Assembly: GCA_039621445.1 (NCBI GenBank)
Contig: CP154954.1
Location: 45,859,847 to 45,923,846 of the forward strand
DNA length: 64,000 bases
DNA from: Euglena gracilis
Lineage: Eukaryota
Reading direction: 5' to 3'
In this document: in pieces, positions 2,851 through 31,800 of the stretch
Numbering within the stretch: position 1 is the stretch's first letter
Layout: each line of letters opens with the position of its first letter
The notes under the pieces: generated by a model
Databases searched by the model: none
What the model was told of the DNA's origin: nothing
The model's input: only the letters and a program-made list of their open reading frames with translations
Program-made: the position numbers and the translations under genes

Positions 2851-4301
2851 ATGCATATGTGCAACATATATGTGCAATTTTTATGTGCAATGTTTTTTTT
2901 TAAGTATATGTGAATATGTGCTCATATTTTACAGTATATGTGTGTATGCATATATTCTTTTGTGTGTATATTAACCCCTAAATAGAAAACCCTCCAGGCT
3001 TTATGATTGGATGGGATGTTAAGGCCCTCAGGGTGGGCTTTGTATTGGGGGGGGGCAGCTTATATTTGGGTGACAACTGAAATCAGTTTAAAATTTATAG
3101 GTATAAAATATTTGACTGCACTTGAAGACCACCGATGGTCAAAGAGGCCATCAAAAAAAGTGTGATTTTTCCCACTTCTCAATTTTACCAAAAGCACCAT
3201 TTTTTTGCCCCAAATGGAGCATTTTTTTAAAAAAAATAATTGTAATTTTGATGCATTTTTTTGATTTTTTTTTGCTTTGAATGGCACCATTGGTGGGTTT
3301 TACACTAGGGGGAGGGTGTTTTTATATTTGTGTGGTAAAACCAAACGTCTTGGTTGGGGCTTTATATACAGGGGGGGGGACGCCAATGCGTCAAAATATT
3401 GTCAGGTTTTGGTCTCGGGGAAAAATCGGGCGAGGAATTTTCCATTATTGAAGAAATTTTCCAGCGAATATTAAAAAATCATCAGGACAAAAAAATGCAA
3501 AAAAAAACGATCGCACAAGAAATTTGCCAAATCGAAAAGCGCAAAAAACCTCAAAAAATTGCAGTATTTTTATTCAAAATGAAAATTTGCCCTGAGGGAG
3601 CCGAAAATTTTATCCAAGTCCTCTGAAGCAGGAAGTGCACAACCGGGGGAGCTTGTAAAGGATTTTGCATACAAATTGCAATTTTGGAGTTCCCCCCCTT
3701 TTTTTGCGTCGCTTTTTTGAAGGGTCCGTGTTGCATTCCCCCCTTTTTTTAATATATTTGGGGGGTTGTAATAACATTTGACCATATGCAGAATTTCGGG
3801 AATCTTTTGCAAGGTACATTTCCCATTCACATTTTCAGTCATCTTGTCTCTGAACCTTTATGAATTCCCGTGAAATTCCTCTCCTCTATCCAGTTGAGTG
3901 CGGTTCATTTTTGTTCAGTGGATTTGATAAATTGCTAAATTGGGGAATTAGATTTCAAGCACGAAGTTTTTTGTCAACTGAAAAAATGACCTTCCGTGTG
4001 TGAAAAGTGATTAAATCCCCCCACATACACACAGAATGGGGCCACACTGTGCCCTGATAAGGTTAAAAAAAAATTTATTTTCCAATTTTTGACGCTTTTG
4101 GTGTATTGACTTCATGGCCTTGATGCACAACTTTTAACACATTTCAACGTGGTGGGGTTTCCGGTGGGGTTTCTGGGCAAAGCCTGGACACCTCCAGAGT
4201 GGATTTGTTGTGCCCTTCTTTTGTTTTATTTTTGGTGAGAATTGGGTATTTTTTTGTGATGGGGCTTTTCGTTTAGTCCACCTTTTTTTTTGGTGGCCCA
4301 G

Positions 4302-7300: not shown

Positions 7301-10300
7301 AGAAGCAGCTCTACAACTTGAAGGAAACAGGAAATTGCTTTTTTGTAACCTCAACCTCCCAGAAATGCATGCAGTTGCTTCTTTTTTTGTGTGTTTTTTC
7401 TCTTTCGTAGTTTTTTTTTGGCTCAATTTTTGTTTGGAAAAATGGGAGGCAGAAGTTTGGGAATTACCCAAATTTTTATCTTGTAATGGGCAACCTCAAA
7501 GACAATTCAGTTTTTGGGTTACAATGACGTTCCTGGTTGTGAGGAATGCCGCATTTATGATCCTCCATGTCGCCTGCAGCTGCCGACATCTGGTGGCGAC
7601 ATCCACACACCCCGTCCCAATGCTTTCAGGGTTCTGCGAACTCGACGTGCGAAATTGTGGGCGCATTTCGGTGGATGAACTTGCTGCAGCAGGCGAGGTG
7701 TGGGTTTTTCTTGGCATGGAATTAAGCCTGTTTGTGCCGAGCGTATTTCTCAACATTTCGGCACACATTCAACGTGTGCATGATCCAATGAGTTCTATTC
7801 CAGCAGCCATGATGGAAAGTGTATTTGTTGTCAGTGTGCCTCTAAAGAAGTATTTTTTTTGGCTCACAACCACCGCGGAACAATTATTGCAACCGATTTA
7901 CTGCGACAGACTTCTTGTTGTGCCCGTCTGCACCGCACCAACTTTTGAAATGTGCACCACAACTGCCGCTCAATTTTTTTTATTTGCTGCTTTTCACTTT
8001 GCATTTTTATGCATTTGTTCGGGAGGGCGAGGGTGCTACTGTGGTGTTCTTTGTGTTTTGACAAGAGCCCAGGTGGGAACCTGGGCTGGGAAAATAGCTG
8101 CGGGCTGGAAAACAGGTCCTGGTTGGACCCCCCCTGAGGGGGTGCGACTGGCAGCTGGGCTTAGTCAGCCAGCCAGGCTGCAGATCTGCCCCTGAGGGGT
8201 CCGCTTAAATAAAATTGGGGCTGGACCCCCCAAAAAAATACTGTGCGCAATGTGCCGCATTTTTTTTGCAAAATAGTATTTTTGAGGGGGGGTTTGGGTT
8301 TTCATCTCCAAAATTTGGCTGAAAATTCCAAACAACCAATTTACCTAAAATTGGACTTTTTTGCTTATTTTCGGGGTCCAACTGGGTCCAACTGGCTGAC
8401 AATGATCACTGCGGAAAACACTTGTGCTGCGACTGCCGTGAAAAAAAATTGTGTCAAATGTTTCGTGCCACCTCCGCTTCAGCAATAAATTATTGCCGTT
8501 GCGGAAAATCCACTGACCACGATAAATTTTTGTGCCGTGACACCTGCGCAAAAAATTGCAAATATTTCAAAGTTCTCTGAGGCATTTTTATGGTTTTTTA
8601 AGGGGGTTTCAAAGGTTTCTACAGGGTTTTAAAGTTTTTTCTCTAAGAATTCTGCTCAAATTTGAAATTCCATGGATGGTCCAAGGGCGCTCTGGGCATC
8701 GAACAGGGTCCAAAATAAATAATATTTGGGCCCCCATTGTTTGAGTTTGGGTGGATAGACACTGTCCCAGCGATGCCAGCTGGTTTTTGCCGAGGTTTTG
8801 CCACTTCATCTTTTCTCAGTTGAAGAAAGATTTTGTCCGAGTTATTTCTTAAGCCTTTTTTAATGCTTTTAAAGGGTTTTAAGGTCTTAAAAAAAATAAG
8901 CGTGCTCAGCGCACACGACACGCGTGGTCGTATGGTGGAAAGGTGTGGCTTTGCTTGTGGTTGGGGGACGTTCTGCTCCTTTCTGCCGCGCAGGAGATTG
9001 CGGGGCGGACTTTCACGGTGGAGATGTTCCGTGCCGCCGCCCGCTCCCGGGACGACTCCGTCAGCCTGGCGGAGGTGATCGCAGTGCTGTTCCCCCACTT
9101 CTCCCCGCACCTCATCGACCTCTTCCTGCGCATGGCGGGGAACGAGCCCCCCCACCCCGACTACCCCCCGCCGCCTCAAGTACCACCCTTCTGCCTCCTT
9201 TCTGTCGTGCACCAATCATTCAATTATCTTCAACCCAAATCAAGCGATTCAATTTTATTATTTAGCAAAGAATAATATAAAATCAGTTGATTTTTTAAAA
9301 AATCAATTGATAATTGTTGATTGTTCATTGTTAAATTTATTTTCTCATATGCGGCTTTTCATCCCAAATTGTTGTCATCTGTGGGTGGAGCCGGCTTGTT
9401 GCAGCCCAGAGGAACGGTTGTTCATGATAAGGCCAAAGCCGGAGGCCGTGGTGCACCGCGGGATTTGTGTGACCTGTGGAGACAAACGGGGGGCTGTTGG
9501 TTCACAGGAAGTGGCCCAGCCGCTGGAAGAGTTCCAGATCAACCCGGCGGCCATTATGCTGTCGCGCGAGGAGTTCCTGGCCCTCCGGATGGGCTACGAG
9601 AAAGTGGTCCGTGGTGCCGGGGCTGCAGTTTGGAGGGCAACACATCAACTGCAATAGAAGGCGATGCCTTTTACCAGGAAGCACATTTTCTCTGAATATT
9701 TCTGCAATTTTTTTGTGATGAGGGTTTCTTCTCTCATGGTGAGACTATATATGTTTCATAGTTTGTTTTCAGATTTTTATGCAGGTTTTGCAGAGTATTT
9801 TTTGCTGTCTGTTATTTGTTTGCGCATTTCACCCACCCTCTGTCTTTGATTTATCCGATCAGTTCCAATCTGTGCGCTGCAATTGTGGCACCCTGCCCTT
9901 CGCCCAGTGGTGCTGCATCCCCCTCCCACTGCACGGTATCGCTTGCGGCTGCCAGCGTTGGTTGCGGCTGGGGAAACCATAGCTGGCAATCGCTTCACCC
10001 GAAAGATTCTCAGGCCCTCCCCACTTGGATCTTCCTGATTTCTGAAGGTTGGGACGGAGGGGGAGGGGAGGTGGGTGGGTCCCCCCGGGGGGGGGGGGGC
10101 GAGTGGGTACCCTTGCAAAAGGTTTTTCTTGTTTCCTTTTGCGCACAAAGTTCCAGACAAATAAGTTTTCGAACCCCTAAATTAACCCCAAAGTGGTTTC
10201 CCACCGAGCCCCCCCCCCCCCCGCCAGCCGGGGTGGGTGGGTGATCGGGACGGGGAACCTCACCAGTATCGGTGGTTTTTAGGATCCGGGGCATATTCCG

Positions 10301-10590: not shown

Positions 10591-13511
10591 GACGGTCTTC
10601 ACGGGATGGGGATAATTATTTTTCCTTGGGCTTATGCAGCCAAACATGCAATTGGGCCTTGGCATGTCGTCTTGCACAACTGCGCAAATTCCCCACTTCT
10701 CGAGATTTTGGTTGGGTTTTTGAACTGCTGGTGACACGCCACATTGCCCCCATTGTTCGGGGGTGAAGCCTGGGGGGAAAGACAAAATATTGGTGTTTTT
10801 GGTCCTCTGATGACACCAAGAATGGCACCAATTTTCTTTCCCACAGGTTTTATCCCCAGGAAATGAGAAATTACCCAACCCCCTGATCTTGTCCGCCCAC
10901 ATTTCCTGAGTGGCAACCAGATATATATATTTTAGGTTTGGGTCAGGCTGAATTCCTCCCCCCTCCGGAGGGGGATTTTCTCTTTTTTCGGTGCGAAGCG
11001 CCGAAATGATCTGTCGGACCCAAAATTGACCCCAAAAGTGGTTCCCCCAGCCCCCCCCCCCCCCCCGGGGGGAGGGGAGAGGGACAGGTGAACCAGCATC
11101 AGATTGTGCTCTGGAGGTCTGAGGTCGGGTGACAGATCCTCCGCCTTACAAGGAGCCTTTTCACACACCTTTACTGGTAGAAATGGACTGTCAGATAACT
11201 CCATTTCTGGTGGCTGGGGGATGAGACTGCAGCAGGACCCCCGGACCCCATTCCTGGGGGGGGGGCAGCCAGCACCTTTCTTTACAGCCAGCAGTTTTGT
11301 TTGTTCAGCCGGTCGACTTCACTTGTTCTTTTGAGTGTCTCATTTGTCCAGTCACGCAAAGTGGACCACTTGAATAGTTCGTTTGTGCAGTCGTGCAGAG
11401 CAGAGCGCAAACACAGCATCCATGAAGTCGACGTGTTGTGCAGCATTAAATAAAGCGAGCCAAGGCTTCACAGTATGTTTTCCCTTGTACATGTCAGATG
11501 ATCAGATGATTTGATGACTTGTTGCTGCTTTTTTTAAAAAAAAACGGGGGATGGTCGAAGGATGCCGGAACTCTCTGATGTTGATCTGTTTTGCTCAGCA
11601 ATGTCCATTTACCATTTTTCCTGTTTATTTTCAGGTGAACGTGCTGGAACGGCAGATTTTTTCCCCACGTTTTCTTTTCTTGGGCCGCCCTGTGTGTATT
11701 GTGTGTTTGTGTCTTTTCGTGTATGTATGTGTGGGTGTGTCTGTCTGTCTGTCTGTGTGTGAATGGGTGGGTAGCGGATGGGTTTGGTTCTTTGTGGTTC
11801 AGCGCCACCTCCCTTTCGAGGAAAGCCCACCCCCGGGTGGCCTGCTGCCGTTTGCCGAAACACTCGTCCAGCACGGCCACAACGGCGCCATCTCGTTCTT
11901 GGACATCCTGCGTGCCTGGATGCCCTCCGTCCCGGAGCAGGTCCGCCTTCCTTTCTCTCCGTCCCCCTTCCCTCCTCTGGCCCATATCCGACAACAAGCT
12001 CCCCCGGCTCCAAAACAGGAATTCGGACGTCCCGCCTGTCAGCAATCCCCCTTCGCTTTCTCTGCGGCGCTGTGCTTTGAGACAGACGGCCGGTCGGCCG
12101 GCAACCGCTCTGCAGACCCCAGTTAAGGCCAGCCCCACTTTCGGACTTCACCCACGAAAGTCGGGGTCCGGCGCCGAAGAAACACAGCGGGGTTATCCCC
12201 CTCCCCCTGGCGCAGGTGCTGCGGGCCCACCTCGCGAGTGCGGACGCCGCGGCAGACCGCCCCCCGACGCCGGAGCCGGCCACCCCCGCCCCGGAGGTGG
12301 CGGAGCCCCGGGTGCGGGTCCCCTACGCGGAGGGGGAGCTGCACCTCACCCTGCCGATGTTCCGCCTCACGCACCTGCTGGAGCAGCCCGGGCACCCGGC
12401 GGCTGCTGTGGGGGTGTCATCGTTTTTGGGAACTCCCGGGGTTGGGGGTCAGGTGGCACCGCTGTGTCCTGCGGAATGCACGTCCTGCCTTGGAGGACAG
12501 GTCGCAGGGTCACAGGGTGAGGTTGTGGGGTTACTATGCCTCTCTGTGGAGGCAGGGCCGCATGGACCAGCCGCACATGGCTGGAGGGCGGATGGCGGGT
12601 GGTGCCACCACGCGGTACCACTGCTTTAGGCTGCTGCAGGGCCTCGACCTCGCCGGCGTCTTCGTCCCCGCGCTAATGGACCCCACCAAGGTGCATATCT
12701 ATTTGCCTCGGCTGTGGAGCCGTCGAGCCAAGGTTGCACCTTTGCCCCACGTTGAAGGAATGTTATGCATCGGTCCCAGTTTGTCTCAGCTTGGCAACCA
12801 GTTCTAACACAAGACCAGGCAATTTTCTGAATGTCATTTTTTTTTATTCAGTTTCAAAAATATACTGGAAATATATGAGTATAGTAGAAATTTTATGAAT
12901 ATAATCAGAAACTGTGTATGATGTAATTTTCCGTTCAGAGAATTGTTGAATGCTGGGGACAGGCTGTTTTTTAAGGTGGTGCCGACCCCCCTGGGGGGGG
13001 GGGTGCCTGCCTGGCAGGCACTCCAAGGCACTCCCGATCCGACCCCCCTCCGGGGGGGGGGGGGCACACGGCCAAAAGTGCCCAGACCAGACCGCACAGA
13101 CCCCAATGGCGCCGGGGAGCCAAAAAAATGGCTTATTTTCAAAGGAATGTGCCTGGGCGCAGGCCAAAATCCGACGGGGGGTAGTACCTGCCTGGGCAGG
13201 CACCCCAAGGCACACAGGACCCCCCCTCCCCCCCGGGGTTGGTAAAAAAAACTGCCTGGCCAGGGAAAGGTTGCAGCAGCAGCTCGTCATCGTCACTGGA
13301 GTCGCCCAGCCATCGCCAACGGTCTTGCCATCCCTTGCCCCACCAGGTGTTCCGGGACTTCATCACATGTCCGCGGCGGCACCGCCAGCCCAAGCCGTCC
13401 GCCGACCCCGTCGCCCACATCCACATCAAGACGAACGTCCCCGCCGTGAGCAAAGTGATGTACCGCTTCCTGGTGGAGGGCTACGCCCGGGGCCGGCTGC
13501 GCCTCTGGTGA
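4302..13511 (+). CDS. Multi-exon EF-hand-like repeat protein, 5'-partial (start not identified)
   Basis: Predicted exons 4302-4416, 7630-7697, 8994-9179, 9508-~9610, ~9876-9906, 9957-~10012, ~10312-10362, 11635-~11650, 11803-11940, 12216-~12391, 12630-12690, 13347-13511 (TGA). Phase-consistent joins give LTEDDFLDLQQGFCELDVRNCGRISVDELAAAGEEIAGRTF (EF-hand loop), a second copy GYEKVVRCNCGTLPFAQLVAAGETIAGNRF, and HGHNGAISFLDIL. The middle exons are uncertain. Confidence 0.7.
4893..6583. mobile_element. hAT-like non-autonomous element with 7-bp TSD
   Basis: TIR CAGGGCAGGGAGAT / ATCTCCCTGCCCCTG; ATTATTT duplicated at 4886-4892 and 6584-6590; CCGGAATAAA tandem subterminal repeats at both ends. Confidence 0.8.
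10395..10587. repeat. (GT)n/(GC)n compound microsatellite
   Basis: Direct reading. Confidence 0.9.
12960..13258. mobile_element. CAG...CTG MITE (hAT-like)
   Basis: CAGGCTGTTTTTTA / TAAAAAAAACTGCCTG ends; flanks GCTGGGGA / GCCAGGGA (6/8); internal GTGCCTGCCTGG..CACTCCCGATCC core recurs at ~19790, ~24780 and (reverse) ~43500. Confidence 0.65.
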
Positions 13512-17734: not shown

Positions 17735-20700
17735 ATGGCACGGGCGGTGTTCCGGTGCCAGTTGGGGGACGCGATGGTGCTGAAGCGCCTCATCCAGGCC
17801 GTCCGCGAGATTGTGGTTGAGGCGAATTTCGACTGCACGGCGAACGGATTGCAGGTGCAGGTATTTTATCCTTCCACGGGTAAATTGACGATTGTTTTGC
17901 TGCCCAAGGATGCGTACCAGGATTTTGATTGCATATCTCGTGCTTACAGCGATCTTACGGGAGAATCAAAAAATGATCCTGGACGAGGCATTGCAAATGC
18001 TTGTTTTTGAGTCACCGAACACTTCTTTAATTCCATTTCTTTATCAAGATATTTTTGAAAAAATTGATTTTTTGACCCAGAGCAGGGATTTTTTTTAAGT
18101 TTGGACCCCCGGGGGGGGGGAGGGGGGGTAGGGTGGGTGGGTCCGCCGACCCCCTCCCCCCCCCGGGGGGGGGTCCCCCCCAGAGGGGGGTGGGATATAC
18201 TTTTCGGCGCCGCAGGCGCCGAAAAAATTCTATTTTTAGCACTTTTCGCAATTTTTCGGCCATTTTTTGTGGGTCCCCCGGGACCCCCTCCCCCCCCCCC
18301 GGCCCCCCCCCAGGGGGGTGGGTGGGTGGGGGGGACCCCCCCTCCCCCCGGTCTTAAAAAAACCCCTGACCCAGAGATTCTGTGCTTAGGCTCCACCCAT
18401 TAAACCCAAATTGAACAGTCTTTCTGTTTCGACACGTATGCACATGCACGCACGCACGTGCGCACGCACACACGCACACGCCATAAATTACTTTCAGGCT
18501 TATTTTATTTAAAGTTTAATGCTCTATGGCCTGAAAGTCTTGCCTTTGGGGAGTGTGGCTCAGCCATCACATTTGCTTATGCGAGAGTGACAGTGGTACA
18601 ATCTGGGCTCTCCTCTCATTGCCGTTCTCATTGACTTGCTTTCTTGCTGCAATGATTGATTTTATAGTTTTCTGAACATTGCAAAAAATTAAAAAGAATT
18701 TTCTTTGATTTCAAGAACCCTGTGTTATGCAGCCATATTTTTGCTGCTGCTGACATGGACGACCACATGGGTTGTTTGAAAAATATTTGCCACACATTTA
18801 TGCCTTGTTGATTGCTGGGTTGTGATTGTTAATTGTGGTTGGCTTTGACCCCCCCCCAATAGTGCATGAGACCGCGCCTGTTTATTTTGATGGGTTACTA
18901 GACCTCAAAGGGGAGCCCAGGATCAGCGCGGCAACCGAGCGCGGTGGGACCAAAAAGTCGGAGAGTCGGACCTGGGATTGCATTTCGCAGGTGTTGAAAA
19001 ACACCTGGTGTAGTGGTGTAGTGGGGTAGTGGTGGTGTGGTGCTGTAGGGGCCTTTCTGTGTATTGGGGGGGTTCTTAACTTAAAAAAAAAATCCCGTCC
19101 CTTCCTGGACTCCGGCAGGGACCCACAAATCCCTTAAGGGACCCACGCACACTACCACCCCCTCTACCAGCCCTTCCCCCCCCCCCTGTGATCCAATCTG
19201 AAAAAAATTCCTGGTCTGTATACAACTGTACCAACAGTTTTGTTTGTACCAGTAGCCACCACATCTGTTCCAGTGTATCCAGTTCCAGCTGCAGGGCATT
19301 TGCACCGGTAGCTGGTCATTTGTGGTTGCTTTTGCTCTTCTGCAAACTTTCGGTACTTCTGGCACTTTTGGTGTTTTTGGCTGTGTTAAAGTTTTAGGCC
19401 ATTTCTCATTCTTTTGATCAAATGTGGCCCATTTTTGGCGACTTTACGCAGATGCGGTGAGAAAAAAGGCCAAAAAGAGGCCAAAAATTGCCAAAAACAG
19501 CTGAAAGTGGACTAAATGGAAAAGTGGCCAAAAGCTGCAAAAAAAATAGATCAACAGTAGTCACCAAAAAAAAATATTAAAAAACAGGCAGGAATAATCA
19601 AAACAGCCGAAATGGCCAAAGGTTGCATATGTTTTCAGTCGATTGGTGATTCTGCTTGTTTGGAAAACCTGATGGTGGCAAATCAAGAATGATGCCTTGT
19701 TGCAGGCATGCACTTTTTTTTTGAAGAATGTCGGTTTTAACCCAAGGCAGGTTTTCGAGACTCTGAAATCACCACCCTGAGGGGGGGGGGTTGCCTGCTG
19801 AGCAGGCCTTCAAAGACACTCAGATCCCCACAGGGGGAGGGGGGGCACATAGCCCTCGGCGCTTGGGCACTTGGCCAAGAGATCAAGGATTAGTGGCCTG
19901 GGGGGCCTGAGTATGCTGAGTTTGACGACTGTCTCAGAGTGCCCTGGAGTTCCTGGGCAGGGACCCCCCTGGGCTTAATGCCTGCCTGGTTGTGGGCAAA
20001 AAGTGCCAAAACTGGCTTTTTTCTGGGCTTCCAGCGCCAAAGGCGCCGGAAGTGCCCTGTTTGGCTCGGGGTGGCTTCCACTTTTTTTCTGCTGTGCCAA
20101 CAGGACCCCCGCCCCCTCCGCAGGCGATGGACACAACCCACACCTGCCTCATGGTGCTGGACCTCCAGGGCGGTGGCTTCCAGCGCTTCGAGTGCCACGC
20201 GTACCTCTCCCTGGGGCTCCACATCGAGCACCTGCGGAAACTCCTTGAGCCCATCACCCCCGCCCTCGCCCCTCCCTGTGGCTGAACAATGTGGAGGGGG
20301 ATTTAGACCCCCCCCTTCCACGGGTGCCATTTTCAGGCCAAATTTTTTCTTTGCACGGCCCTGTGGGGGTGGGCGGGTGCTGTGTACTGCACAGGGTTTG
20401 CGTGGATTGTATTGCCACCAATAGGTGGGTGGGGGGGAGGGCGAGGCTGTGGCTGCTCTGCCACCCTCACCGTGGAGGAGCCGCGGGAGCAGCTGGACAT
20501 CCGCATCGAGGCTGGCCGTGGGCAGGGGGTTATTATTTTTAAGGTATAAATTTCCAAAAAAAATCAATTTTTGAAAACATTTTTTTTAGGTCTTTTAAGG
20601 TTTTTTAAGGCAATCTGGCCAAAAATTATACAGCCCTTTTCTACGTTATTTTTAAAGGTTTCAAAAACCACTTAAAAAACACCCCCTGGTGGTGGGGGAC

Positions 20701-23700
20701 CCCCGATGGTGGAGTGGACGCTGCACCTCATCGACATCGACGCGGAGCACATGTCCCTGCCGGAGGAGGAGGCCGCAGAGGGCAAGGTGTACACTCCCCC
20801 GACTGAATGCTGTTGTGCAGGGCCCCCAACGCGGCAGAGAGGGAAGGGAGAGTCCAAGGCGGTGTGGCCGCAGCTGCTGGCACTGTCCCATGTCCCACTC
20901 GACCTTCACTTTTCTTTTTTTTTGCTCCTCGATCTTGCGAGTTTCCGTGGCTCCCTGCAGGCCACCTTCAGCATGGCCTCGGACGAGCTGTTCCGCCCCC
21001 GGGGATGCCCTGCATTTGGGGTGCCCCGGAGCATGTGTGTGCATTTCGCAGGGGTTTGGCGGCTGGCATGGGTTTGAAAGCTGCAGGGACATTTGAATTT
21101 AAATTCAACACCAGACATTGTCGGGGTTCAATGAAAGAAATGTATGGCATATGTTCTAGTAGATTTTTATTGTGTTTGTTTCATCAAGAATTGAGTTCAG
21201 TGATGCTCACCAAATTGTCAAATATGATTTGTTTGCAAAATTTTGCTCTCAAAAGCGTGAAAGCATGAGTTGAAAATGAAGTGTTTTCTTCACCATTTTT
21301 GCATCACATTATTTTTCACAAACATTCGTTTATGAATATTAGGAATGCCTGGACAGGACAAAATCAAGACATCCTTGAGCTCACTTGTTACCAGAAAATA
21401 ATCCACCACAACATCCGTTTGTTTGGAGGACCAGTTCGACGGTCACAAATGTGGTGTGACCTTCGTTTGCCAGGGTTTGGGCAGCTACCGCAGCGCCCCT
21501 CCGCCGGCTCATCTGCTCCGCATTTTCTGACTTGGCCGACACTGTCACCCTTGGCGGCAACCCTCTTGGGACAGCTCACCTTTTACCAAGGGGTTTCCGG
21601 GTGTGTGACTGTGGGGGGGCTTCTTGATTTCCCTCATTTTCTCGGTGAACACCAAATTTTACCTGGTCCCCTGAAGGTGGTTGTCACCCCCCTCCCCGGC
21701 TCGGGGTAAACCCCCCATTTAAACTGACCCCCCTTCTAAACCGACCTACCCTTCCAAACTGACCCATTACAGAATTTCAACAAAAAAAAATAAACCGACC
21801 CATGGCAAGTTGGATGACAAACATGCACAACATAATGGAAGCCGCCAACGGAAAGAGCGTCCATGCTCATTGAATTGTTAGCGTTGATGGCCCAAAATTA
21901 GGATTTTACACCCAAAATTAGGCATTTGCTTCCAAATTTTGGAGTTTGCGCCTCAAATTGGGCATTTTCCTCCGAAAATTTGGTATTGAAACCCAAAAAA
22001 AATACAAAATGAGGCATTTGCAACCTAAAATATGAAGTTTGCACCCAAAATTAGGCAGTTTGCCACCAAAAATTGGATATTACACCCAAAATTCAGCATT
22101 TGCCCCCGAAAATTAAGAATTTCCATCCCAAATTAGGCATTTGTCACTCAAAGTTAGGAATTGGCTGATCAAATTGGGCATTTGCCAATTGAAATTGCCT
22201 TGCTAACTTCAACCCGCTTCCATCACGCCGTTGGCCAGCCGTGTGCTCCCCCTGAAACCGACCCCGTCTAAACCGACCCCCTCCAGGATTTCCGCCAACC
22301 CAAGTCCTAAACCGACGGGTCGGTTTAAATGGGGGGGGGTTTATATCTGGACCAGGGGGCGATGGCAGAAGGTGGAAGCCTCCATCCATCCCCTCCCACT
22401 CATTCTGTGGTGACAGTTTATGGGAATCCGCATGGCCAAGCAACATTCTTCCCCGCCATTGCCCCCCCTCCGCCCGGCGATAGGGCTGCCCCGCCCGATC
22501 TGACGCAGCGGTCCGTGGCGTTCATCCCCGCCTGGCGTCCTGCCCCGCGAGGCGCGCGCGCGCACGTGTGTGTGTGGGTGTGTGTGTGGGTGTGTGGGTG
22601 GGTGTGTGGGTGTGTGTGTGGGTGGGTGGGTGTGTGGGTGTGTGTGTGTGTGTGTGTCTGTGTGAGGCGGGGACGGGAAAGGAGGGGCAGGGCCCCGGCG
22701 GCGTGACCAACACGGTGGACCCGGAGCGGGGCGTGGTGCCGGGCAGCAGCAGCGGCTCCGTCACTCTCGTGTTCCGACCCTGCCCGGCCCGGGCAGACCC
22801 CCAGAGACTCCCGCCTCAGATTGGCCACAGTTGGGTTGTCTGCCCTGATAGCAGCTGAGTGCCAGGGTTCGATGGGTGGCGCTTGGGGAGGTGTACCTTT
22901 TTTATTTTTTTTTAAAAAAAACGGTCGTCCGAAGCCACATCAATGTCACAAGATTAGACAGATTCACCTTCAGAAAGCAGATGATCCCAGAAGTCTGCTT
23001 TTTTTGCTCAAAAAGTTGAGTGATTTTTCTGAATCTTAAAGTTATGCAAGGAAATTGGATTTTTTTTACAGCCAGGGAAATTGGACAATCAATTCACATT
23101 GAAGTCCTTGGGCGATTGGCAAGGAGAGGACCCGCGAATTTCCATGGTCCCTCCCTTGAACCCCCTGAGAGGGTTGCATAAAAGAATCGGCGAGAGTTAC
23201 AAACATTGGTTTGGGAAAAGAAACCGTTCAACGCGATGTGGACACCATTCTTTAAGAGAGGCCACAAAATTTGACTCAGGCTCAAAGGAAGGTTCTGAAA
23301 CGCACACGTGAAGGCTCTGCTGCCGTGCCAGCGGATGCAGAATCGGACGCTGCACGCCTGGAAGGGACACCGGCTTTCAGCCACCCCGCCCCAGCCGACG
23401 TGCACTACTTTGTGCACCCGTGCATCCTTCTGGTCCATCTGCTGGAATGAAATCGACGGCAACAAAGAGGGGGGGGCGTCCATATGCCAGCCAACGCACA
23501 GTGTGCCGCACACCGTGCACACTTTGCACACCGTCCGCCCTTTGATTGCTTTGACTTCTTTGACTGAAAAAAAATGGAGATTTAAACTCGATTTTTCCGA
23601 CATATTTTTTTTGCTGTGGATTGATTTTTCGTTGTTTTTTTCCTTCAAAAAACCTGACACTGAAAGACGCACGGTGTGTGCACGATGTGCAGCACGGTGT

Positions 23701-25336
23701 GCACGGTGTGCATCGGCATCCTGTACTGTGTTAAGATAAAATAGGGGATGGACCTGCACATCCAGTTATGGTATCGATATATCCCGCATAATTTTTGGAT
23801 GTCAGTCAGGAGCTCCGAAAGCCAGAAAAAAACAGGCAAAAGTTTGGGTTATTTTGGCTAAACTCTCTGAGAGCCAGGCGGTCCATAAGGGATGGACCAC
23901 CCCTTAAATAACCTGGGAATTGAACAGGGTCAAAAATTAAAAGGTCGAGAAACACATTTTTTGACGTTTGGGTTGATGGGCGATGGTACAAAGATGCCAA
24001 AAATCACCCCCCCCCTGAAATCGTCCCGTTTTTGCCAGAATATTGCCATTTTTGGATCGTTTTTCCAGTGGATTTTCATTAAATGTGCTGGGACAGGAAA
24101 TTTTTTTTATTAAGGACTGCCCTGCTGAGAGCTTTGAAAGGTTTCAGGTGGAGGTTGTGACTCATTGAGGGGAAAGTCTATGCTACAACCCGTCAGTCAC
24201 TGAAGGGTGCGCATACAGATTCAGTGGCAAGCACACCTCGAAGGCTGTGGAGCCGAGAGTACACTCTGCCTGTTTTTCATTTGTTGCCCACATGAGTGCC
24301 GGGCCGCGGTGCCATGGAGAACATCCGACAAACATTCCGGCTGGCTTTCCTCCTTGCCATCTCTCGGTCCCGGACGGTGAGTTCCCGGGTCCATCTGCAG
24401 CTGACACCTCAGGCCACACCCCTGCCTGAATGTCCCCGTGAGGCTTTTTGACCCGCCCAGGTTGGGGTCAGGCTGTATTTTAGTCGGGTGCCGACTCCTG
24501 GAACACCCATTCGGTTACTCGGAGTAAGGCCCAATTTGGTCCATTTTTACATGGTAACCTGGGCTGACCTGGTAAATGTCCCCCGGAATGGTCGAATGCA
24601 CCCATCTAAATGTGCTCATTTCTTGCAACCAACATTCCCGCTGCATGTTTTTCTTACCATTAAATCACGACAATCATGAAACCAACGGGTCACCTGACTT
24701 TGGAGGCCTCCTGGAACACCCATTCGGTTACTCAGAGTAAGGCCCATTTTGGTCCATTTTTACATGGTAACCTGGGGGGGGGGGTGCCTGCCTGGGCAGG
24801 TACTCCAAGGCACTCCCGATCCGACCCCCACCCGGGGGGGGGGGGTAGGGCACATGGCCAAAAGTGCCCCAGCACAGACCCCGGCGCCGAAGGCGCCGGG
24901 GATCCAAAAATGGATATCCGACCCCCCAGTGGGGGGTTAGTGCCTGGCAAGTTTTGTCCGGGAATTTCCCTGCATCCTTCATTTGTCACGGATCGGGCTA
25001 AGATTTTCTCCCCGAAGGACTGATGTTTTGGGTTACAAGGCTGCTCAGTCACCATTGAAACTGGGCTGCAATGGCACGTGAATTTTCATTTAATGCCATC
25101 GACAGTGCGTCCCTCCCCCCTCTCTCTCATTCGTTGATGGCCGGCGGCGGCGGTCAACCCCAAGGGCCAACAGCGGTTGGCGACCACCACATCGGTGCGG
25201 GGGGGGGGGGGGCAATCCCAATACAGATCCCCACGGCGGCCGGGGGGTGGGTCCGGCCCCGCTGCTCGTGACGTACCCCCTGGGCCCCCTGGGCAGCCTT
25301 CAGTACTACGTCGCCGGCTCTGCCGGCCCGGAGTGA
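17735..25336 (+). CDS. PCNA: Divergent PCNA-family sliding clamp
   Basis: Exons 17735-17860 (MARAVFRCQLGDAMVLKRLIQAVREIVVEANFDCTANGLQVQ), 20124-20261 (AMDTTHTCLMVLDLQGGGFQRFECHAYLSLGLHIEHLRKLL), 20451-20519, 20694-20786 (LHLIDIDAEHMSLPEE, IDCL-like), 20961-~20994, ~21506-21552, 22497-~22523, ~22703-22790 (SGSVTL), possibly ~23310-23370, ~25048-25091 (VTIE..VNFH), 25146-~25199, ~25255-25336 (PLLVTYPLGPLGSLQYYVAG). Collinear with PCNA motifs QSMDSSH, DLDVEQLGIP and PLVVEY..MGHLKYYLAP. Confidence 0.88.
18083..18368. mobile_element. CAG...CTG MITE with perfect 8-bp TSD
   Basis: TIR CAGGGATTTTTTTTAAG / CTTAAAAAAACCCCTG; ACCCAGAG at 18075-18082 and 18369-18376. Confidence 0.9.
20262..20450 (+). 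other. Non-conventional (non GT-AG) intron in PCNA-like gene
   Basis: Y|R borders; +4..6 CTC pairs with -8..-6 GAG; stem CCTCGCCCCTCCC/GGGAGGGCGAGG; removal gives KLLEPITPGCSATL, the same length as PCNA KILKCAGNEDIITL. Confidence 0.8.
20520..20693 (+). other. Non-conventional intron that is itself a CAG...CTG MITE
   Basis: CGT|GGG-CAGGGGGTTATTATTTTTAAG...CTTAAAAAACACCCCCTG-GTGGT|GGG; in-frame join; flanks GCCGTGGG/GTGGTGGG (6/8). Confidence 0.85.
21707..22344. mobile_element. TIR element with internal tandem repeats of about 21-22 bp
   Basis: TAAACCCCCCATTTAAACTGACC / GGTCGGTTTAAATGGGGGGGGGTTTA; internal CACCCAAAATTAGGCATTTG-like array 21890-22190. Confidence 0.65.
24495..24776 (+). repeat. 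Direct duplication of about 68 bp
   Basis: CTCCTGGAACACCCATTCGGTTACTC..CATTTTTACATGGTAACCTGGG at ~24495-24563 and ~24708-24776. Confidence 0.85.
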
Positions 25337-26197
25337 TGCCGCGGCCCGAACCCCTCCCTTGTCCTGGCCCTGACGCTCTCCTGCAGTGCCCGAAGCACCC
25401 GCAGCCCAGGAAACATGGGGCAACTTACCTGCGGCTGATGACACCCGACACACATTGATGAAGGCAGCAAGGGTACGTTGTGTTTTCTGCCTCTTGGGGA
25501 AATCAGGCAGATTACCACATCATAATACAGTATCAATCTACATTTATAATTGAATTTATTGCACATATTACACCCACACAACAACCCCTCGAAGGAAAAA
25601 TTGGATGCGAAAAATAAGCACCACCATTCCCTGTTGAGCACTGCAAGAATGAAGCAAGGCTTCTGATGCATTTTTTTTTGGAAACAGGGGTGAGTTTCAT
25701 TGGGTTCACACTGACAGAAACAATGGTTCAGAAGCAAAATAAATAATGCAAGCAGCGGCCCACTTATTCCACGCCCACTGTGAAGAAGGGGGAGGGGGGA
25801 AAGCGGATTGCAACAAACATTGCAGGTTCAGAACAGTTAGGTTGCCCTTCATCGTGCCAAAGAATAACGGTGAAGAGCATGACAGGGTTGAAATTCACCT
25901 GCCCCCTCAAGGTTGGGTTTTGGGTTTTGGGTCCCCCCCAAAATTTTGTTTTTTTGGGTACTCCCCCAAAAACACCAAAAATTTGCATTTTTGGGACGCC
26001 CTCTTGGAAAAAATTAACCCCATAACCCCTGACCACCTAAAAAAGGCCGATTTTGGCCAAGAAAAGCCATTTTTTTCAAAATTTTCTGTGCCTGCAACGC
26101 AAAAAAGTATCTCTCACCCCCCTCTGGGCCCCCGGGGGGGGGTCCAGCCGGACCCACCCCAACCCCCCCCCGGGGGTGCAGCCTTAAATAATCCCTG

Positions 26198-26270
26198 GGG
26201 CTGCTGCCGGAATCGAACCACCGACCCCCCGTGTGCAAAGCAGGATTCCTGTCCAACACGTCTAAAAGGA
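26198..26270 (-). pseudogene. tRNA-derived (Ala-TGC-like) pseudogene/SINE head
   Basis: Reverse strand has B-box GGTTCGATTCC and TTGCA anticodon loop, but stems are degenerate. Confidence 0.4.
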
Positions 26271-26299
26271 TGGAAGCGCACCGGGGGGGGGGGGCAGTG

Positions 26300-26880
26300 C
26301 TTATACAAGGCCGGTGTTAATACTCCGGGGGGGGGATGGTACAAAAAAATTGTGGATTCTGATAAGGGGTGATCGTTGGAATCCAGACTATTATTTTCGG
26401 AGGAAAAATGATGCCCTCCAGAATTGTGGCCTCTGATTGGGGGGGGGGCAGGGGGGTGTGATCATTGTAAACCCTCCCCCCAAATAGTGCCCCCCCAAAT
26501 AATACCTCCCCCCCTCGGGGTCTGACTTCGGCCGCTGAAATAATACCCCCCCCCCCCGGTTTCGGGCCGAAGGCCCGGATTTTTGACCTGAAAATGTAGG
26601 TAAAAATCACAATCTCTGACAACTAAGTACAAAAAAAAATCGATTTTTCTGGATCATCTGGCCTCCAAAAAAAATGCTAAATTTCATGGGAAAGTACAAA
26701 AAATGACCCCAAAGGGGAGTTTTGGCGCTATTTTTGCTCCTACAGAACTTCGAAAAATTTCGAAAATTTTTGGGAAATAACACCCCCCCAAATAATACCC
26801 CCCCCCCAAATAATACCCCCCCTCCTCGGGCCGGGACTTCGGGCGAAAAATAATACCCTGGGGGTATTATTTGGGGGGGT
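26300..26880. mobile_element. AATAATACCCCCCC-repeat MITE family (related pieces ~13930-14290, ~36920-37150)
   Basis: Recurrent CCCCCAAATAATACCCCC / GGGGTATTATTTGGGG motifs in both orientations; 26580-26770 resembles 14020-14230 in reverse. Confidence 0.5.
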
Positions 26881-28833
26881 TTACATCTCTCGAACAGAAA
26901 ATTGCACTTTGGGGCATTTTGAAAGGCTTTGTTGCCCCAATTTCAGGATCCAAAATTGTATTAACTAAACTAACTGGGTGGGGGAAGGTCGGACCATTGA
27001 AGGAAAAAAAGCCAGAAAGCCTTTCAAGCAGGCGGGGAGTGTTCAGGACAACTCTGAGCGACAGCCCCTTTGTGACTTTGCGGATGTCGACCATTGTTTC
27101 CTGTGGTTTTCGCTCATCATCAATGGAGACCCAAGAATTTGATTTTTGGGTACCCCCCCAAAAATTTTGGGCCGATTTTGGGACCCCCCCCAAAAAATAC
27201 AAAAACAAAACCCAACCTTGGCCCCCTAAACATGCAAACTACATTCTTACAAATTCCATCCATTCACTCACTTGTGAACTCGTTCCGTATTATTAAATGA
27301 TAATCTCCCCTTTGATCATTTATAATTATTTTGACCCTTGCCCTTTCAGGTGGAGTTTGCCAAGTGTGTATCATTAGTGTCATCCGGCGTGGCTCAGCAT
27401 ATTTTGCCCAGTATCTCGCTCTTTTTTTTGCCTCCCGTCCCTGAAAATTTTGCCCACCTTAAGTAATATGATTTTCCACCCAGTCCCAAAACTCTCCTCC
27501 TCGGCATTTATTTTTCCCCACGAAATTTTGTTTGCCGATGTCTTTTCACTTTGTGAAATGTTCAAAGTTTTTTCGGGGTTGTGGCAGAAGGCGAAGGACT
27601 CATTCTCTTCCAGCGTTGTTCTGTTCCAGTTTTTTGGGGGGAAGGCTGGCAAAAAAATTGGCATTATGACATTATGACATTACGACATTATGGAGGATCA
27701 TTTCCTTGGGCAGTGTCAGAACATGGTGGTAGATACGTAACGGGGCAGGAAACTGCTAACCACAGTGGCTGCCAGGGGAATTTTGCTGTAACCCCCCCAA
27801 AAGCCCCCCCCCAAACATAAAGCCCCCCCCCCCCCAGGGGATTTGGTTTGCCGCCCAAATATGAAGCCCCCCCCCCCCCGAGGTGGAGCCAAACGATGGC
27901 GCCATTCAGGAAAAAAGTTGAAAATTTTTGGGTGGATTCAACTTTTTTTTTCACCACATATGCACCATTTTGGATAATATTTGCACATTTTTGGAAAAAT
28001 GGGAGGTGCACAATGAAAATTTGGCTAAAATTGGTATGAAGGTCACAGAGGCCATCAAAAAAGTTTGACCCCCCCCAAGTATAAAGCTCCCTGAGGGTCT
28101 TGAAATCCCGTCCAAATGTCAAGCCAGGCCAATAGTGGGGGGGGGGTTAGGTTTTGGGGAAGGTTGCGGTAAAAAGCGACTGCTAATTGCGTTATTCACA
28201 CTGTTGACACCCAGTCATTGGGATATTTCTCAAGGAGGGAGTCAAAGTATTGCGGAAGTAGGGGTTTTAGGTATGGTTGGAAAGTGCTTTCGCAGCGCAT
28301 TTGTGGCATACTGTCAGCACAGCTGGAGAAGAAAGATTGGTGAAACAAATGGAGCCATGGACATACAATCATTTTGACACTGACCGACACCCCCCCCCCC
28401 CCCGGGGGTGGGTGACTGGTTTTTAGAGTGACTGACTGGTTATTGACCCAGACCCCCTCCACTGCAGAGGGGGGGGGGGGCAAAAAAAACTCTAAAGTGA
28501 CCTTGCACCTAAGGCGCTGGTAAAAAGTTTGACTTTTTCCCCATTTCTAGTCAAATATCTCTTGGATTCCAGAGTGGCCGACCCCCCGGGGGGGGGGGGG
28601 TAGTGGCTGACTGGTTTTCTGAAAACAGTTAGTGACTGGATTTTGGAGGAGTGGAAGTGACCCCCCAGTGGGGTCAGTAAAAAAAACATCTGGCCATCAA
28701 TGTGTCAAAGGGAGACCTACCAACCGTTGCCAAAACAGTGTTGCTTGTCCATCACCAGCCCACTCTCTTCCACTCCCTGCACGTCCGTTGTGCGGTGGCG
28801 TGAGCGGGCGGTTGCCACTGGGGGAGCACGTCC

Positions 28834-31800
28834 ATGCCCTACACTCCCCACCTTAGACCCCATGTGGGCCCGGCCCAGAGCCCCGCCTCCCTCGGGCCTG
28901 CCCTGACCCCGGCGGATGGCCTACCCCCCGGCTGGCCGGCTGAACGGGCCGCTGTTCAGTGACAGCCAGCCCTTGCCCTGGCGAGCCTCGGCACTGAGGT
29001 AAAGAATTTCAAGGTTGGACTATTTTGCTTCAGTGCTTCAGGCAACCACACAACCACAGGATTCCATTCTGTTGGCCACCTTTTGAGTGCAAACATTGAA
29101 TTGAGACTTCCTTTCCAGTGAGACAAGAATGTACAAACATCTGACCACGCTGCCACAAAACAACTCTTTCCCCAGGACCCGGAGGAGATTGGGGGCTCCG
29201 TCCCCACCCACGGGCCGGTGGATGGGAGGTCACCGAACTTCGCCAAGTATACCATGTTAAGGAAATTGCCAAAATTTTCTGGACGGTAAAATGAAATGGC
29301 ATTATTCATGAGGTGAAACGTTACTTTTGCTTTGTGGAGGTGCCCGAGGTTTTTCAACTGCAACAAAAATTTTAGCCATTTAGCCATCTTTGCCGTTAGT
29401 CAGACGTCAGCTTTTTTGTGTTCCTTTGCACAATTGTTCAAAGAACAAGCCAACTATGTGTTAAGTGCAAGCGGCTACCTAAGGTTTTGTCTCTGCCCAC
29501 TCCCCCCCCCAGCAGCATTTTTCCAGCTGTGTTCGGCCATGTGAAGTTGGCTTAGGGAGCCGGGCGGGCCAGGTGTCCACCGTCCGCAAGGAGGCCCCGG
29601 CCGTCCACCGGGGATGGGCCCCGGGGGCCAGTGGACTGCTGGCCGAGGGCTGCGGCAGACCAGGACACCTCCCATCGCCGGCCCTCCAGCGCGGACTCCG
29701 TCGGTCTGTCCCCGGCCTGAGTGGCGGCAGCGGCAGACCCAGCTGGACTGCCGAACCATTTAGACTATTTGGAGGCTGGATCGACGCCCCAATCGACTAA
29801 TTTCATTCTTGTCCGATGCTGCAGTCGAGCCATGCCAACTTTGTGCAATCATGTCTGTGTCTCTTGTCTGACGATGAAAGGGACCATATGTAGCTAGGAA
29901 GTTACACAGGATGGTGGCCCTTGCGAACAGGATGGGCTCGTGAGCCCGTTTCCGGTGAATACCCATTCATAATACAACACAATTTCCAGTATTTTTTGAT
30001 ACTTTTGAGGACTTTGTGAAAATTTAGCTAAGAAAATCATTTTCTGAAGAATGATGTAGGTGCCTGGGTCAAGCTCAAGGAGGACACAAAATAACTGTAA
30101 TAGCCCGGAATGGCCAAATAATGCCGGTGCTTGGAGGAGAGTAATTATTACCTCTTGTCCATGTTTGTGACACGGGTGTTTTTCAGGTGTGCCAGCGACA
30201 CCTTTAAGCAGCGCCTGTCCCACTGGTCCGGGCCGGTTTGTTTCCACCCCCTTCCCTTCTGGCTTGCTGCCCGGAGGGCCTTCTGGAAGCGGCCTCCCCC
30301 AGCCCGGGATCGAGAAGCGGCTGGAGCAGGCGCGGGCCACGGTGGAGCGGGCGGAGCAGCGGGCGCTGGAGGCGATGATCGACCGGGATGCTGCCCTGAC
30401 GTCCCTCAAGGCCGGCCGCGCCAGCCGGTCCTTCTTCCAGGGCGAGGAGGTGTGTGCCTGGCAGTGCCAGGCCAGGCCGGAGGGGTGTTCGGGGTGCCAG
30501 CGCACGGTGTTTGGCACATCATCGACATTGTACAGAGTGTGCGTCTTTTATTTCCTGAATGCCTTCAGAAAATTCTTTTTTTTTCAAGCCCAAGACTTCC
30601 AAACCAGGCATTTTTAAGGAAAAACATTTTAAAGCATGTTATGGCGTTTTTTTCAAGGCTTTTTAAGGCATTTTTAGAGCTTTTTAAGGTGCCGTGGTTT
30701 AAGGGCTGTCCAGGCATCGAACCGATGTTTTTGATTTTGCACACGGTCCAAAATCAAAAAGTCAACAATAAACCTTCTTTTGTTTTGGATGGATAGACAA
30801 TGTTCCAGCGATGACAAAAATAAATTTTTACCCCCCCCCCGAGTTGGGCTGATTTTGCCGAGATTTTGTGGTTTCACTTTTGTTCAATGAGAGAAAATTT
30901 TGCTGGTCCATTTTTTTTGGCATTTTCAGGCATTTAAGGCATTTTGGCCCCAAATTTTGAGCATTTTAAGTTTAAAAAAATTTTTTTAGAACAGACACCA
31001 TAAAAATTGTATTGCCTGTTCCAAACCTGTATAGATGGCCCTCAAATGTTCATCTCATTGAAGTTGCGGGAGATGAGAAAACCAAGGTTGTCAACAGAGG
31101 GGATGCAATTTGCATAATTTATATTTTGTTCGGTATCCAGAATCTTCAAAGGTCGCGTTTTTTTGCATAATTTTGAAAGAATATGAGAAATTATTGTTTT
31201 GTGTTCGACCAGAATACCCAGACATCCTGAAGCTGCACATTCCACTTTTTGCACCTTCGTTTGTTGCATTTTTGCATCGCATATTTTGAGCAGGGGATAT
31301 GCACATTTTTTTGCGTTTTCGCACATAAATTTCAGTACACTTTTTTGTTTTTCTCATTGTTTGGGAACTTTTTTTTGTGATTTCCTCAGTTTTTGTGTTT
31401 TTTTGCCCATTTTTTTTGTGATTTCTTGCACTTTCTGAATTTTCCGAATTTTTGAAAATGACATTGTTCTGTGATTTATTTCGATGTTTCAGGGGTTTGC
31501 AGGTTGGTGGTGATGCAACTGTGGACATGAATGGGTTTGCACCTCGCAGCTTTCCCCGGAGTCGGAGCTGGAACGGCTCCGCACGGCGCTGCAACAAAAG
31601 ACCAGCCGCCTCGCTGAGGTCGAGGCCGCTCTGCGCCAGCTGGAAACGGAGCGCCGGGGTTGGCTGCAGAAGCGGGTGTGTCACCCCCCCCCCCCAAGTT
31701 GCTTGCTGGGCTCATCCTACGAACAAATGCAGGCATCCATCCCTTCATAAGCACATATACGGGCTCATACGCACATATGACGCACATATGCAGTGTGTAA

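Follow-up and report, generated by a model that had tools for sequence, protein, structure and literature searches.

In one Euglena genome, nonconventional introns make up 72% of all introns; their origin is stated to be unclear and the machinery that excises them is given as unknown (PMC12501133). A knock-in-tested code for their removal has been described, in which CAG and CTG are essential, a 3-nt spacer precedes CAG, 5 nt after CTG are preferred, and a purine opens the next exon; "slidable" introns with direct repeats, amounting to 84.4% of all, were excluded before this motif was derived (PMC12501133). An origin of nonconventional introns from miniature transposable elements with inverted repeats (MITEs) was proposed in 2013 (PMC3935182) and has been repeated since, in a 2024 review that also refers to repeats resembling target-site duplications (TSDs) (PMC11282704) and in PMC11170887, PMC12621601, and PMC12501133. 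The accessible text of these papers argues from inverted and TSD-like repeats alone and names no repeat family with free copies. The subject of this study is intron 3 of a PCNA-like gene of Euglena gracilis, located in a stretch of 64,000 nucleotides (contig CP154954.1 of assembly GCA_039621445.1, positions 45,859,847 to 45,923,846 of the forward strand), which is referred to as the window and numbered from its first letter. Intron 3 is an RNA-confirmed nonconventional intron, and it was very probably derived from a hAT-like MITE.

The terminal inverted repeats (TIRs) of hAT elements follow the consensus YARNG. Maize Ds, a hAT element, is reported to act as an intron (Giroux et al. 1994). Removal of Ds uses cryptic spliceosomal sites and is imprecise; what Ds and intron 3 would have in common is the loss of a hAT-type element from a transcript. 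An 8-bp TSD together with short TIRs is the hallmark of the superfamily, and the Drosophila hAT MITE Mar has the TIR CAG(G/A)GG and 8-bp TSDs (PMC3517528). Resemblances to Mar are an 8-bp TSD, short TIRs that open with CAG(G/A)GG, an AT-rich composition, and the absence of coding sequence. The elements of the window share 8-bp TSDs with the Merlin elements of E. gracilis, the TIRs of which start with GG (PMC8101967), whereas the elements described here start with CAGG directly after the duplication. A further comparison is offered by the introners of Micromonas, Aureococcus, Polarella, Amoebophrya, and Fritillaria, where an exonic DNA transposon is also removed together with part of its TSD. 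Introners, however, are treated as being removed by the spliceosome, either canonical or altered in its tolerance (PMC11282704), whereas intron 3 follows the nonconventional code.

As in other nonconventional introns of euglenids, the borders of intron 3 are not GT-AG, CAG occupies positions +4 to +6 and CTG positions -8 to -6, the ends pair, a purine opens the next exon, and removal from the mRNA is precise (PMC12501133, PMC11282704). Intron 3 differs from them in keeping an AT-rich interior, a MITE end motif, subterminal repeats, and a putative TSD remnant matching in 6 of 8 positions. It is itself slidable and thus belongs to the class set aside in PMC12501133. The inverted ends of a MITE-like insertion would have become the pairing ends of the intron, as the 2013 hypothesis has it (PMC3935182). 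To the argument of the papers on MITE origin, this locus adds an end motif that can be specified, free copies whose 8-bp TSDs are perfect, and the spacer sum, 3 + 5 = 8. A full-text literature search, which did not extend to subscription journals and supplements and is therefore provisional, returned no paper naming a repeat family with free, TSD-flanked copies as a source of nonconventional introns. Similarly, no paper tying the 3- and 5-nt spacers to TSD length was found by this search, although such a link may be in print in the same subscription journals or supplements.

Removal of intron 3 and the element within it

The plus strand of the window encodes a PCNA-like protein between 17.7 and 25.3 kb. 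The Euglena protein P0001 (source name EG_transcript_22509; 277 aa, with both PCNA domains) aligns to eleven exon pieces of the window, and one residue differs between it and the window product. The name of P0001 and the types of intron described below indicate that the window is nuclear DNA. The features around intron 3 are as follows.

20451 to 20519, plus strand: exon 3 (GCSATLTVEEPREQLDIRIEAGR), placed by RNA joints and P0001 alignment
20520 to 20693, plus strand: intron 3, nonconventional, 174 nt in the 3-nt/5-nt register, separating the codons CGT (R) and GGG (G) in phase 0
20694 to 20786, plus strand: exon 4 (GGPPMVEWTLHLIDIDAEHMSLPEEEAAEGK), placed by RNA joints and P0001 alignment
20515 to 20522, no strand: left copy of the putative 8-bp TSD, GCCGTGGG, first 5 nt exonic, last 3 nt intronic
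20523 to 20688, no strand: MITE-like body, 166 nt, 28% G+C, 5' end CAGGGGGTTATTATTTTTAAGG, 3' end CTTAAAAAACACCCCCTG
20537 to 20610, plus strand: three copies of the subterminal motif TTTTAAGG, which begin at 20537, 20593, and 20603
20689 to 20696, no strand: right copy of the putative TSD, GTGGTGGG, first 5 nt intronic, last 3 nt exonic

Four sequencing runs were compared over positions 18000-34900. X1 and X2 are contig runs presumed, as a guess only, to be RNA, X21 consists of raw RNA-seq reads, and X20 is a DNA-like run. X20 behaved as DNA does: it covered introns, and of the 11 splice joints that the two genes have in this range it showed none. In the RNA, 174 nt were skipped at the joint 20517>20692, which was found in one X1 contig, one X2 contig, and six raw X21 reads with six distinct starts. 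X20 contained no contig with this joint; one contig over 20509-20923 was unspliced at a depth of 33.5. Because GTGGG is present on both sides, the position of the joint is ambiguous over 5 nt, and the RNA permits any of six registers, from 20518-20691 to 20523-20696, with no choice among them. The last two letters of these registers are TG, GG, GT, TG, GG, and GG. Since none of them ends in AG, splicing from the GT at 20518 to an AG acceptor, which the preliminary description of this locus had named as the outcome that would speak against its reading, does not occur; the borders are non-GT-AG, and the intron is removed from the mRNA all the same.

Among the six registers, 20520-20693 reads ggg-CAG...CTG-gtggt, followed by G, and has 10 of 12 stem positions paired, compared to 1-7 in the other registers. 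The G at 20694 is the purine that opens the downstream exon. In the minimum free energy fold, the element pairs its two ends. The preliminary description had proposed a 174-nt intron with N3-CAG...CTG-N5 geometry that rejoins the PCNA frame at the junction CGT/GGG. Both the geometry and the junction were recovered, the latter in contigs as well as reads and slidable over the six registers. The ends and flanks quoted there are present in the window as written, and its interval, 20512-20696, includes the flanks. Exon 3 ends in ...IEAGR and exon 4 starts with GGPPMVEW. P0001 continues across the site, EAGR/GGPPMVEW, without a gap (...IEAGRGGPPMVEW..., ...DIRIEAGRGGPPMVEWTLHL...), and the same holds for P0002, which is 85% identical to P0001. 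Retention of intron 3 would lead to ...EAGRGQGVIIFKV and then to a stop, 10 codons into the intron.

The skipped 174 nt correspond to the 166-nt element plus 8 nt. The site is ordered GCCGTGGG, CAGGGGGTTATTATTTTTAAGG ... CTTAAAAAACACCCCCTG, GTGGTGGG, and the inverted ends CAGGGGGT...ACCCCCTG are perfect over the first 8 bp and match in 11 of 14 positions without gaps. The interior of the element is AT-rich and non-coding, and the three copies of TTTTAAGG compare to 0.16-0.20 expected from shuffles of the element. In the 3-nt/5-nt register, what stays in the mRNA is 5 nt from the start of the left duplicate and 3 nt from the end of the right duplicate. GCCGTGGG and GTGGTGGG agree in 6 of 8 positions; by empirical estimate, the probability of at least 6/8 is 0.010 within the window and 0.023 for pairs of G+C-rich 8-mers. 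Both mismatches lie at positions 2-3, within the intronic 5 nt of the right copy, exactly where the preliminary description had placed them. The chance of this being so for both is about 0.36 by our own arithmetic, and the two differences are consistent with relaxed selection on the intronic part of the right copy, but prove nothing.

Relatives of the element in the window

All copy comparisons cover the 64-kb window. Four further elements are the following.

18083 to 18368, no strand: MITE of the G+C-rich type, interior 67% G+C, TSD ACCCAGAG matching 8/8, in intron 1 of the PCNA-like gene
30605 to 31018, no strand: related MITE of the AT-rich type, TSD TTCCAAAC matching 8/8, in the RNA-supported conventional intron 30450-31549 of the neighboring gene
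37746 to 38126, no strand: related MITE of the AT-rich type, flanks ACTGGATT and GCTGGACC matching 5/8
12960 to 13258, no strand: copy of the G+C-rich type, CAGGCTGTTTTTTAAGG...AAAAAAACTGCCTG, flanks matching 6/8

The first three had been named in the preliminary description as MITEs inside introns. All three exist, two of them (18083 and 30605) with perfect TSDs. For these two, which the RNA comparison over 18000-34900 reached, the surrounding introns are conventional and supported by RNA (17861-20123 for 18083, 30450-31549 for 30605). A scan for CAG...CTG pairs, with thresholds of at least 10/14 for the TIR and at least 6/8 for the flanks, found eight pairs vs. 1.5 in shuffles and added the elements at 12960-13258 and 56203-57046. 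The end motif CAGG-N2-9-T5-8-AAG occurs nine times on both strands, compared to a mean of 0.26 and a maximum of 2 in 200 dinucleotide shuffles. Eight of the nine occurrences are ends of the elements at 12960, 18083, 20523, 30605, and 37746, with both ends marked at 18083, 20523, and 37746, the element at 20523 being that of intron 3; the ninth, at 63820, opens another copy of the G+C-rich type. The 3' end of intron 3 fits the narrower form of the motif, with a spacer of {2,5}, that was derived from the other elements. Furthermore, 10 of the 16 occurrences of TTTTAAGG in the window fall within four elements that represent 2% of its length.

For the 3' subterminal region, blocks of 90 nt were compared without the TIR, each anchored equally far from the 3' end. 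Between intron 3 and 30605, 58 of 94 alignment columns were identical (62%; z 4.5, none of 1000 shuffles as good); between intron 3 and 37746, the score was z 3.2 (5 of 1000 shuffles as good), while 30605 and 37746 scored only z 0.9 against each other in the same block. In BLAST, the best-matching block is 61 nt away from the 3' end for the element of intron 3 and 62 nt away for 30605. Without anchoring, local alignment scores reached z 3.6-4.8, values that some natural AT-rich controls equalled. The elements 37746-38126 and 30605-31018 have an 87-nt core in common (78% identity, E 1e-11). 18083 shares only about 17 nt of each end with the element of intron 3; because of this sharing of ends only and its G+C-rich interior, 18083-18368 was assigned to a different subfamily. 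Similarly, 18083, 12960, and 63820 have G/C-run interiors and nothing but their ends in common with intron 3.

The preliminary description had presented intron 3 as a member of one MITE family with these elements. Its interpretation was largely right and overstated on this point. The ends, the TTTTAAGG repeats, and the anchored 90-nt block shared with 30605 and 37746 support the relationship, whereas the 87-nt core is missing, 18083 shares ends only, and no near-identical copy is found. Judged from the sequences, family membership would hold only for the ends and subterminal blocks, at identities of approximately 62-78%, and the description that fits the element of intron 3 best is that of a short, old relative of the AT-rich subfamily that lacks the core, not that of a recent copy.

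Several other repeats of the window touch on these groups. A degenerate copy of the AT-rich subfamily at approximately 8578-8903 shares the core GGCATCGAAC ... GGATAGACA.TGT.CCAGCGATG with 30605 and 37746; no TSD can be recognized in this copy, and its ends carry mutations (GAGGCATTTTTATGG...). Further copies or fragments of the G/C-run subfamily lie at 63820-64000, where the window closes at 64000 with no CTG end to match, and at 26082-26197 on the minus strand, where identity to 18083 is 68% over the first 143 nt of the latter. The element at 56203-57046 (844 nt) belongs to another family. Its inverted end (CAGACATTCATTTA..., TIR 14/14) is perfect over 14 bp, its 8-bp TSD (AGCAGCAC) is perfect as well, and TTTTTGTGGTTCACCTGTGGACACCA-like subterminal units are repeated; its CAG...CTG ends with the 8-bp TSD fit the frame of a nonconventional intron, except for a pyrimidine at the would-be exon start. 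The AT-rich region at approximately 3072-3320 had a high control score and was rejected as a family member for its plain low-complexity look. In metagenomes, a 25-nt piece of intron 3 had no matches, and 11 loci matching a degenerate 22-nt pattern of the shared core were rejected as relatives, since all have 54-59% G+C and none carries the motifs of the family. Rfam and ARAGORN detected nothing but tRNA genes near 48.3 and 51.5 kb, and a tRNA-derived origin of the shared core found no support.

Gene structure, neighboring introns, and other features

The remaining parts of the PCNA-like gene, as far as they were placed individually, are listed below.

17735 to 17860, plus strand: exon 1, ATG ... 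GTGCAG, Pfam PCNA_N E 7e-8 at profile positions 2-38, corresponding to P0001 residues 1-42
17861 to 20123, plus strand: intron 1, conventional GT..AG, 2263 nt, containing the MITE 18083-18368
20124 to 20261, plus strand: exon 2, Pfam PCNA_N E 2e-6 at profile positions 39-80, 98% identity to P0001
20262 to 20450, plus strand: intron 2, nonconventional, 189 nt, gcc-CTCGCCCCTCCC...GGGAGGGCGAG-gctgt, then G; RNA joint, 10 of 12 stem pairs
20787 to 20960, plus strand: intron 4, conventional GT..AG, 174 nt, RNA joint
20996 to 21509, plus strand: intron 5, nonconventional (CC..CT), 514 nt, RNA joint, next exon starting with C

Intron 1 was placed from a loose RNA end before 20120, which matches 17831-17854 exactly, with GCAG fitting on both sides. 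The alternative of a frameshifting junction at 20120 was rejected in favor of a plain GT..AG intron (17861-20123). Between 21553 and 25255, the alignment of P0001 indicates five further introns of about 944, 173, 526, 938, and 843 nt, for which there is no GT-AG solution. Four of these five would have a well-paired 3/5 register, as inferred from the alignment and not seen as RNA joints. Intron 8 has CAG...CTG in the 3/5 register, and a GT/GGGT microsatellite lies within intron 7 at approximately 22540-22680.

In the neighboring gene on the plus strand, 28964-33498, RNA joints mark four introns of 694, 594, 81, and 222 nt as nonconventional and three of 1100, 971, and 375 nt as conventional. 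Its 81-nt intron has 86% G+C and 11 of 12 stem pairs. Two of its introns, one nonconventional and one conventional, share a repeat (29958-30168 vs. 32234-32463 on the minus strand; 231-nt alignment, 88% identity), which is of a different kind because it lacks CAG/CTG ends. Altogether, seven nonconventional introns were seen by RNA in 18000-34900, and all of them can be written in the 3-nt/5-nt frame. Stem pairing was 10 or 11 of 12 in four and 6-7 of 12 in three of them. A purine comes next after six of the seven, the exception being 20996-21509 with its C, and the stem triplets include CTC..GAG, CGG..CCG, and CTG..CAG.

Elsewhere in the window, many short matches spaced approximately 163 nt apart suggest a tandem array at 45.5-49.5 kb. 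Genes for tRNA-Leu (48261-48344) and tRNA-Cys (51501-51574) lie on the minus strand, and the G+C skew is strongly negative at 50-52 kb (-0.39). A short-word repeat at 34970-35078 falls within the 561-aa open reading frame (ORF) 34492-36177, which has no Pfam match. The summed word depth of X20 amounts to approximately 277,000 at 18000-18563 and 1.4 million at 24204-24767, vs. about 30-45 in single-copy contigs; in the genome, both regions have a very high copy number or low complexity (G/C runs).

Origin of intron 3

We consider it likely that intron 3 arose by insertion of a hAT-like MITE, has been spliced ever since, and diverged later. A short non-autonomous DNA transposon with hAT-like inverted ends (CAGG...TTTTTAAGG) would have entered a coding exon of the PCNA-like gene and duplicated 8 bp of it. 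The machinery for nonconventional introns would then have recognized the terminal stem, starting with CAG and ending with CTG, and cut 3 nt upstream and 5 nt downstream of it, so that the element plus exactly 8 nt would be removed from the pre-mRNA. With the original frame restored (...AGR/GGPP...), the insertion would have been tolerated from the start and have persisted as intron 3, while the copy may have diverged from its relatives and the intronic part of the duplication may have drifted. Since the code removes 3 nt, the element, and 5 nt, it takes away exactly what an insertion of this kind adds, and this would explain immediate tolerance in an expressed PCNA-like gene in either orientation. 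Perfect 8/8 TSDs of three different sequences, at 18083, 30605, and 56203, indicate DNA transposition with a staggered cut. From these observations, we infer the transposition event and the onset of splicing at insertion. The hAT assignment would follow from TSD length and the first TIR bases only: the 8-bp TSDs at 18083 and 30605 (8/8), which have the end motif in common, and the start of the TIR with CAGGG.

A number of observations weigh against this origin. The spacer of {2,9} in the end motif was widened to take in the 5' end of intron 3 itself. A weak signal came from the 5' subterminal block (z 2.2 and z 1.3), and BLAST matches of intron 3 to its relatives are AT-rich, with E about 7e-4. 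Of 19 natural AT-rich control windows, 2 reached the score of intron 3 against 30605 and 0 reached that against 37746. The element lacks the 87-nt core common to 30605, 37746, and the copy at approximately 8578, and BLAST found no near-identical copy of it in the window. Additionally, the DNA depth of X20 over intron 3 is at the single-copy level, 33.5, and as the contig runs through the whole intron at this depth, there is no family of identical copies at the 31-mer level. The putative TSD of intron 3 matches in only 6 of 8 positions, with G-rich flanks, and the total folding energy of the element is ordinary (z 0.88). No transposase or autonomous partner was found, with 10 of the 17 window ORFs of at least 220 aa scanned and no Pfam match. 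Merlin, with elements that are reported from E. gracilis and have 8-bp TSDs (PMC8101967), is another candidate superfamily, although Merlin TIRs begin with GG. Among the seven nonconventional introns seen by RNA, only intron 3 has the family ends. Flank identity is 2-5/8 in the other six, compared to 3-4/8 in four conventional introns; as it is no higher than in the conventional ones, a general TSD signal is not shown here. If the other six were derived from transposons, they would be too decayed to show it or would stem from other families.

The strongest alternative is a resemblance without descent, in which intron 3 is an ordinary nonconventional intron of some other origin with a CAG...CTG stem that splicing requires, and in which AT-richness and G-rich flanks produced the T-rich AAG motif and the flank match by chance. 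The alignment scores to the MITEs, equalled by some natural AT-rich control windows, agree with it, as do a 6/8 flank match, which occurs in 1-2% of random pairs, the single-copy DNA depth, and the lack of a close copy. However, both ends of the element carry a motif that is expected 0.26 times per window and that marks element ends in eight of nine occurrences, three TTTTAAGG stand against about 0.2 expected, and the anchored subterminal block reaches z 4.5. Moreover, the other nonconventional introns of this region have G+C-rich stems and none of these motifs. We therefore regard chance resemblance as unlikely.

In a second alternative, the intron came first. The family would have spread as an intron, for example with excised circular intron RNA being reverse-spliced or reverse-transcribed into new sites, and the "MITEs" would be copies of introns. 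Nonconventional introns are reportedly released as full-length circles (PMC11282704), and the copies at 18083 and 30605 do sit in transcribed introns. An inserted intron, however, would bring along its old 3-nt and 5-nt spacers without duplicating the new target, whereas three elements have perfect 8/8 duplications of three sequences, the mark of a staggered DNA cut, which makes an intron-first origin very improbable. Finally, that there is no splicing at the site and the joined RNA stems from an allele or paralog without the element might be suspected from the divergence of a few percent between the RNA contigs and the window (658 of 918 X1 records show 95-99% similarity) and from the one residue that differs from P0001, but X20 has the filled site and no contig with the joint 20517>20692 or the gene's other three joints, and the neighboring conventional intron is also removed in the same RNA contig, so that this is extremely unlikely rather than impossible, given that rare variants can escape contigs.

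Returning to the insertion of a hAT-like MITE as the source of intron 3, the equality of 3 + 5 = 8 with the length of the TSD is the most interesting lead, as a numerical link that is testable. The 3-nt/5-nt spacer rule could be the RNA-level mirror of an 8-bp TSD, so that hAT-like CAG...CTG elements would be spliceable on insertion in either orientation. Most nonconventional introns might then be decayed copies, and the slidable ones younger, with duplications that still match. We put this forward tentatively, as somewhat less likely than not. Intron 3 itself offers an RNA-verified case: within an expressed gene of replication-clamp-like type, it retains both the ends and the subterminal repeats that TSD-flanked repeats have. 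With CAGG-N2-9-T5-8-AAG as a searchable end motif, the MITE hypothesis becomes a question of genome-wide counts and knock-ins, and intron 3 is a concrete instance of what has been in print as a hypothesis since 2013.

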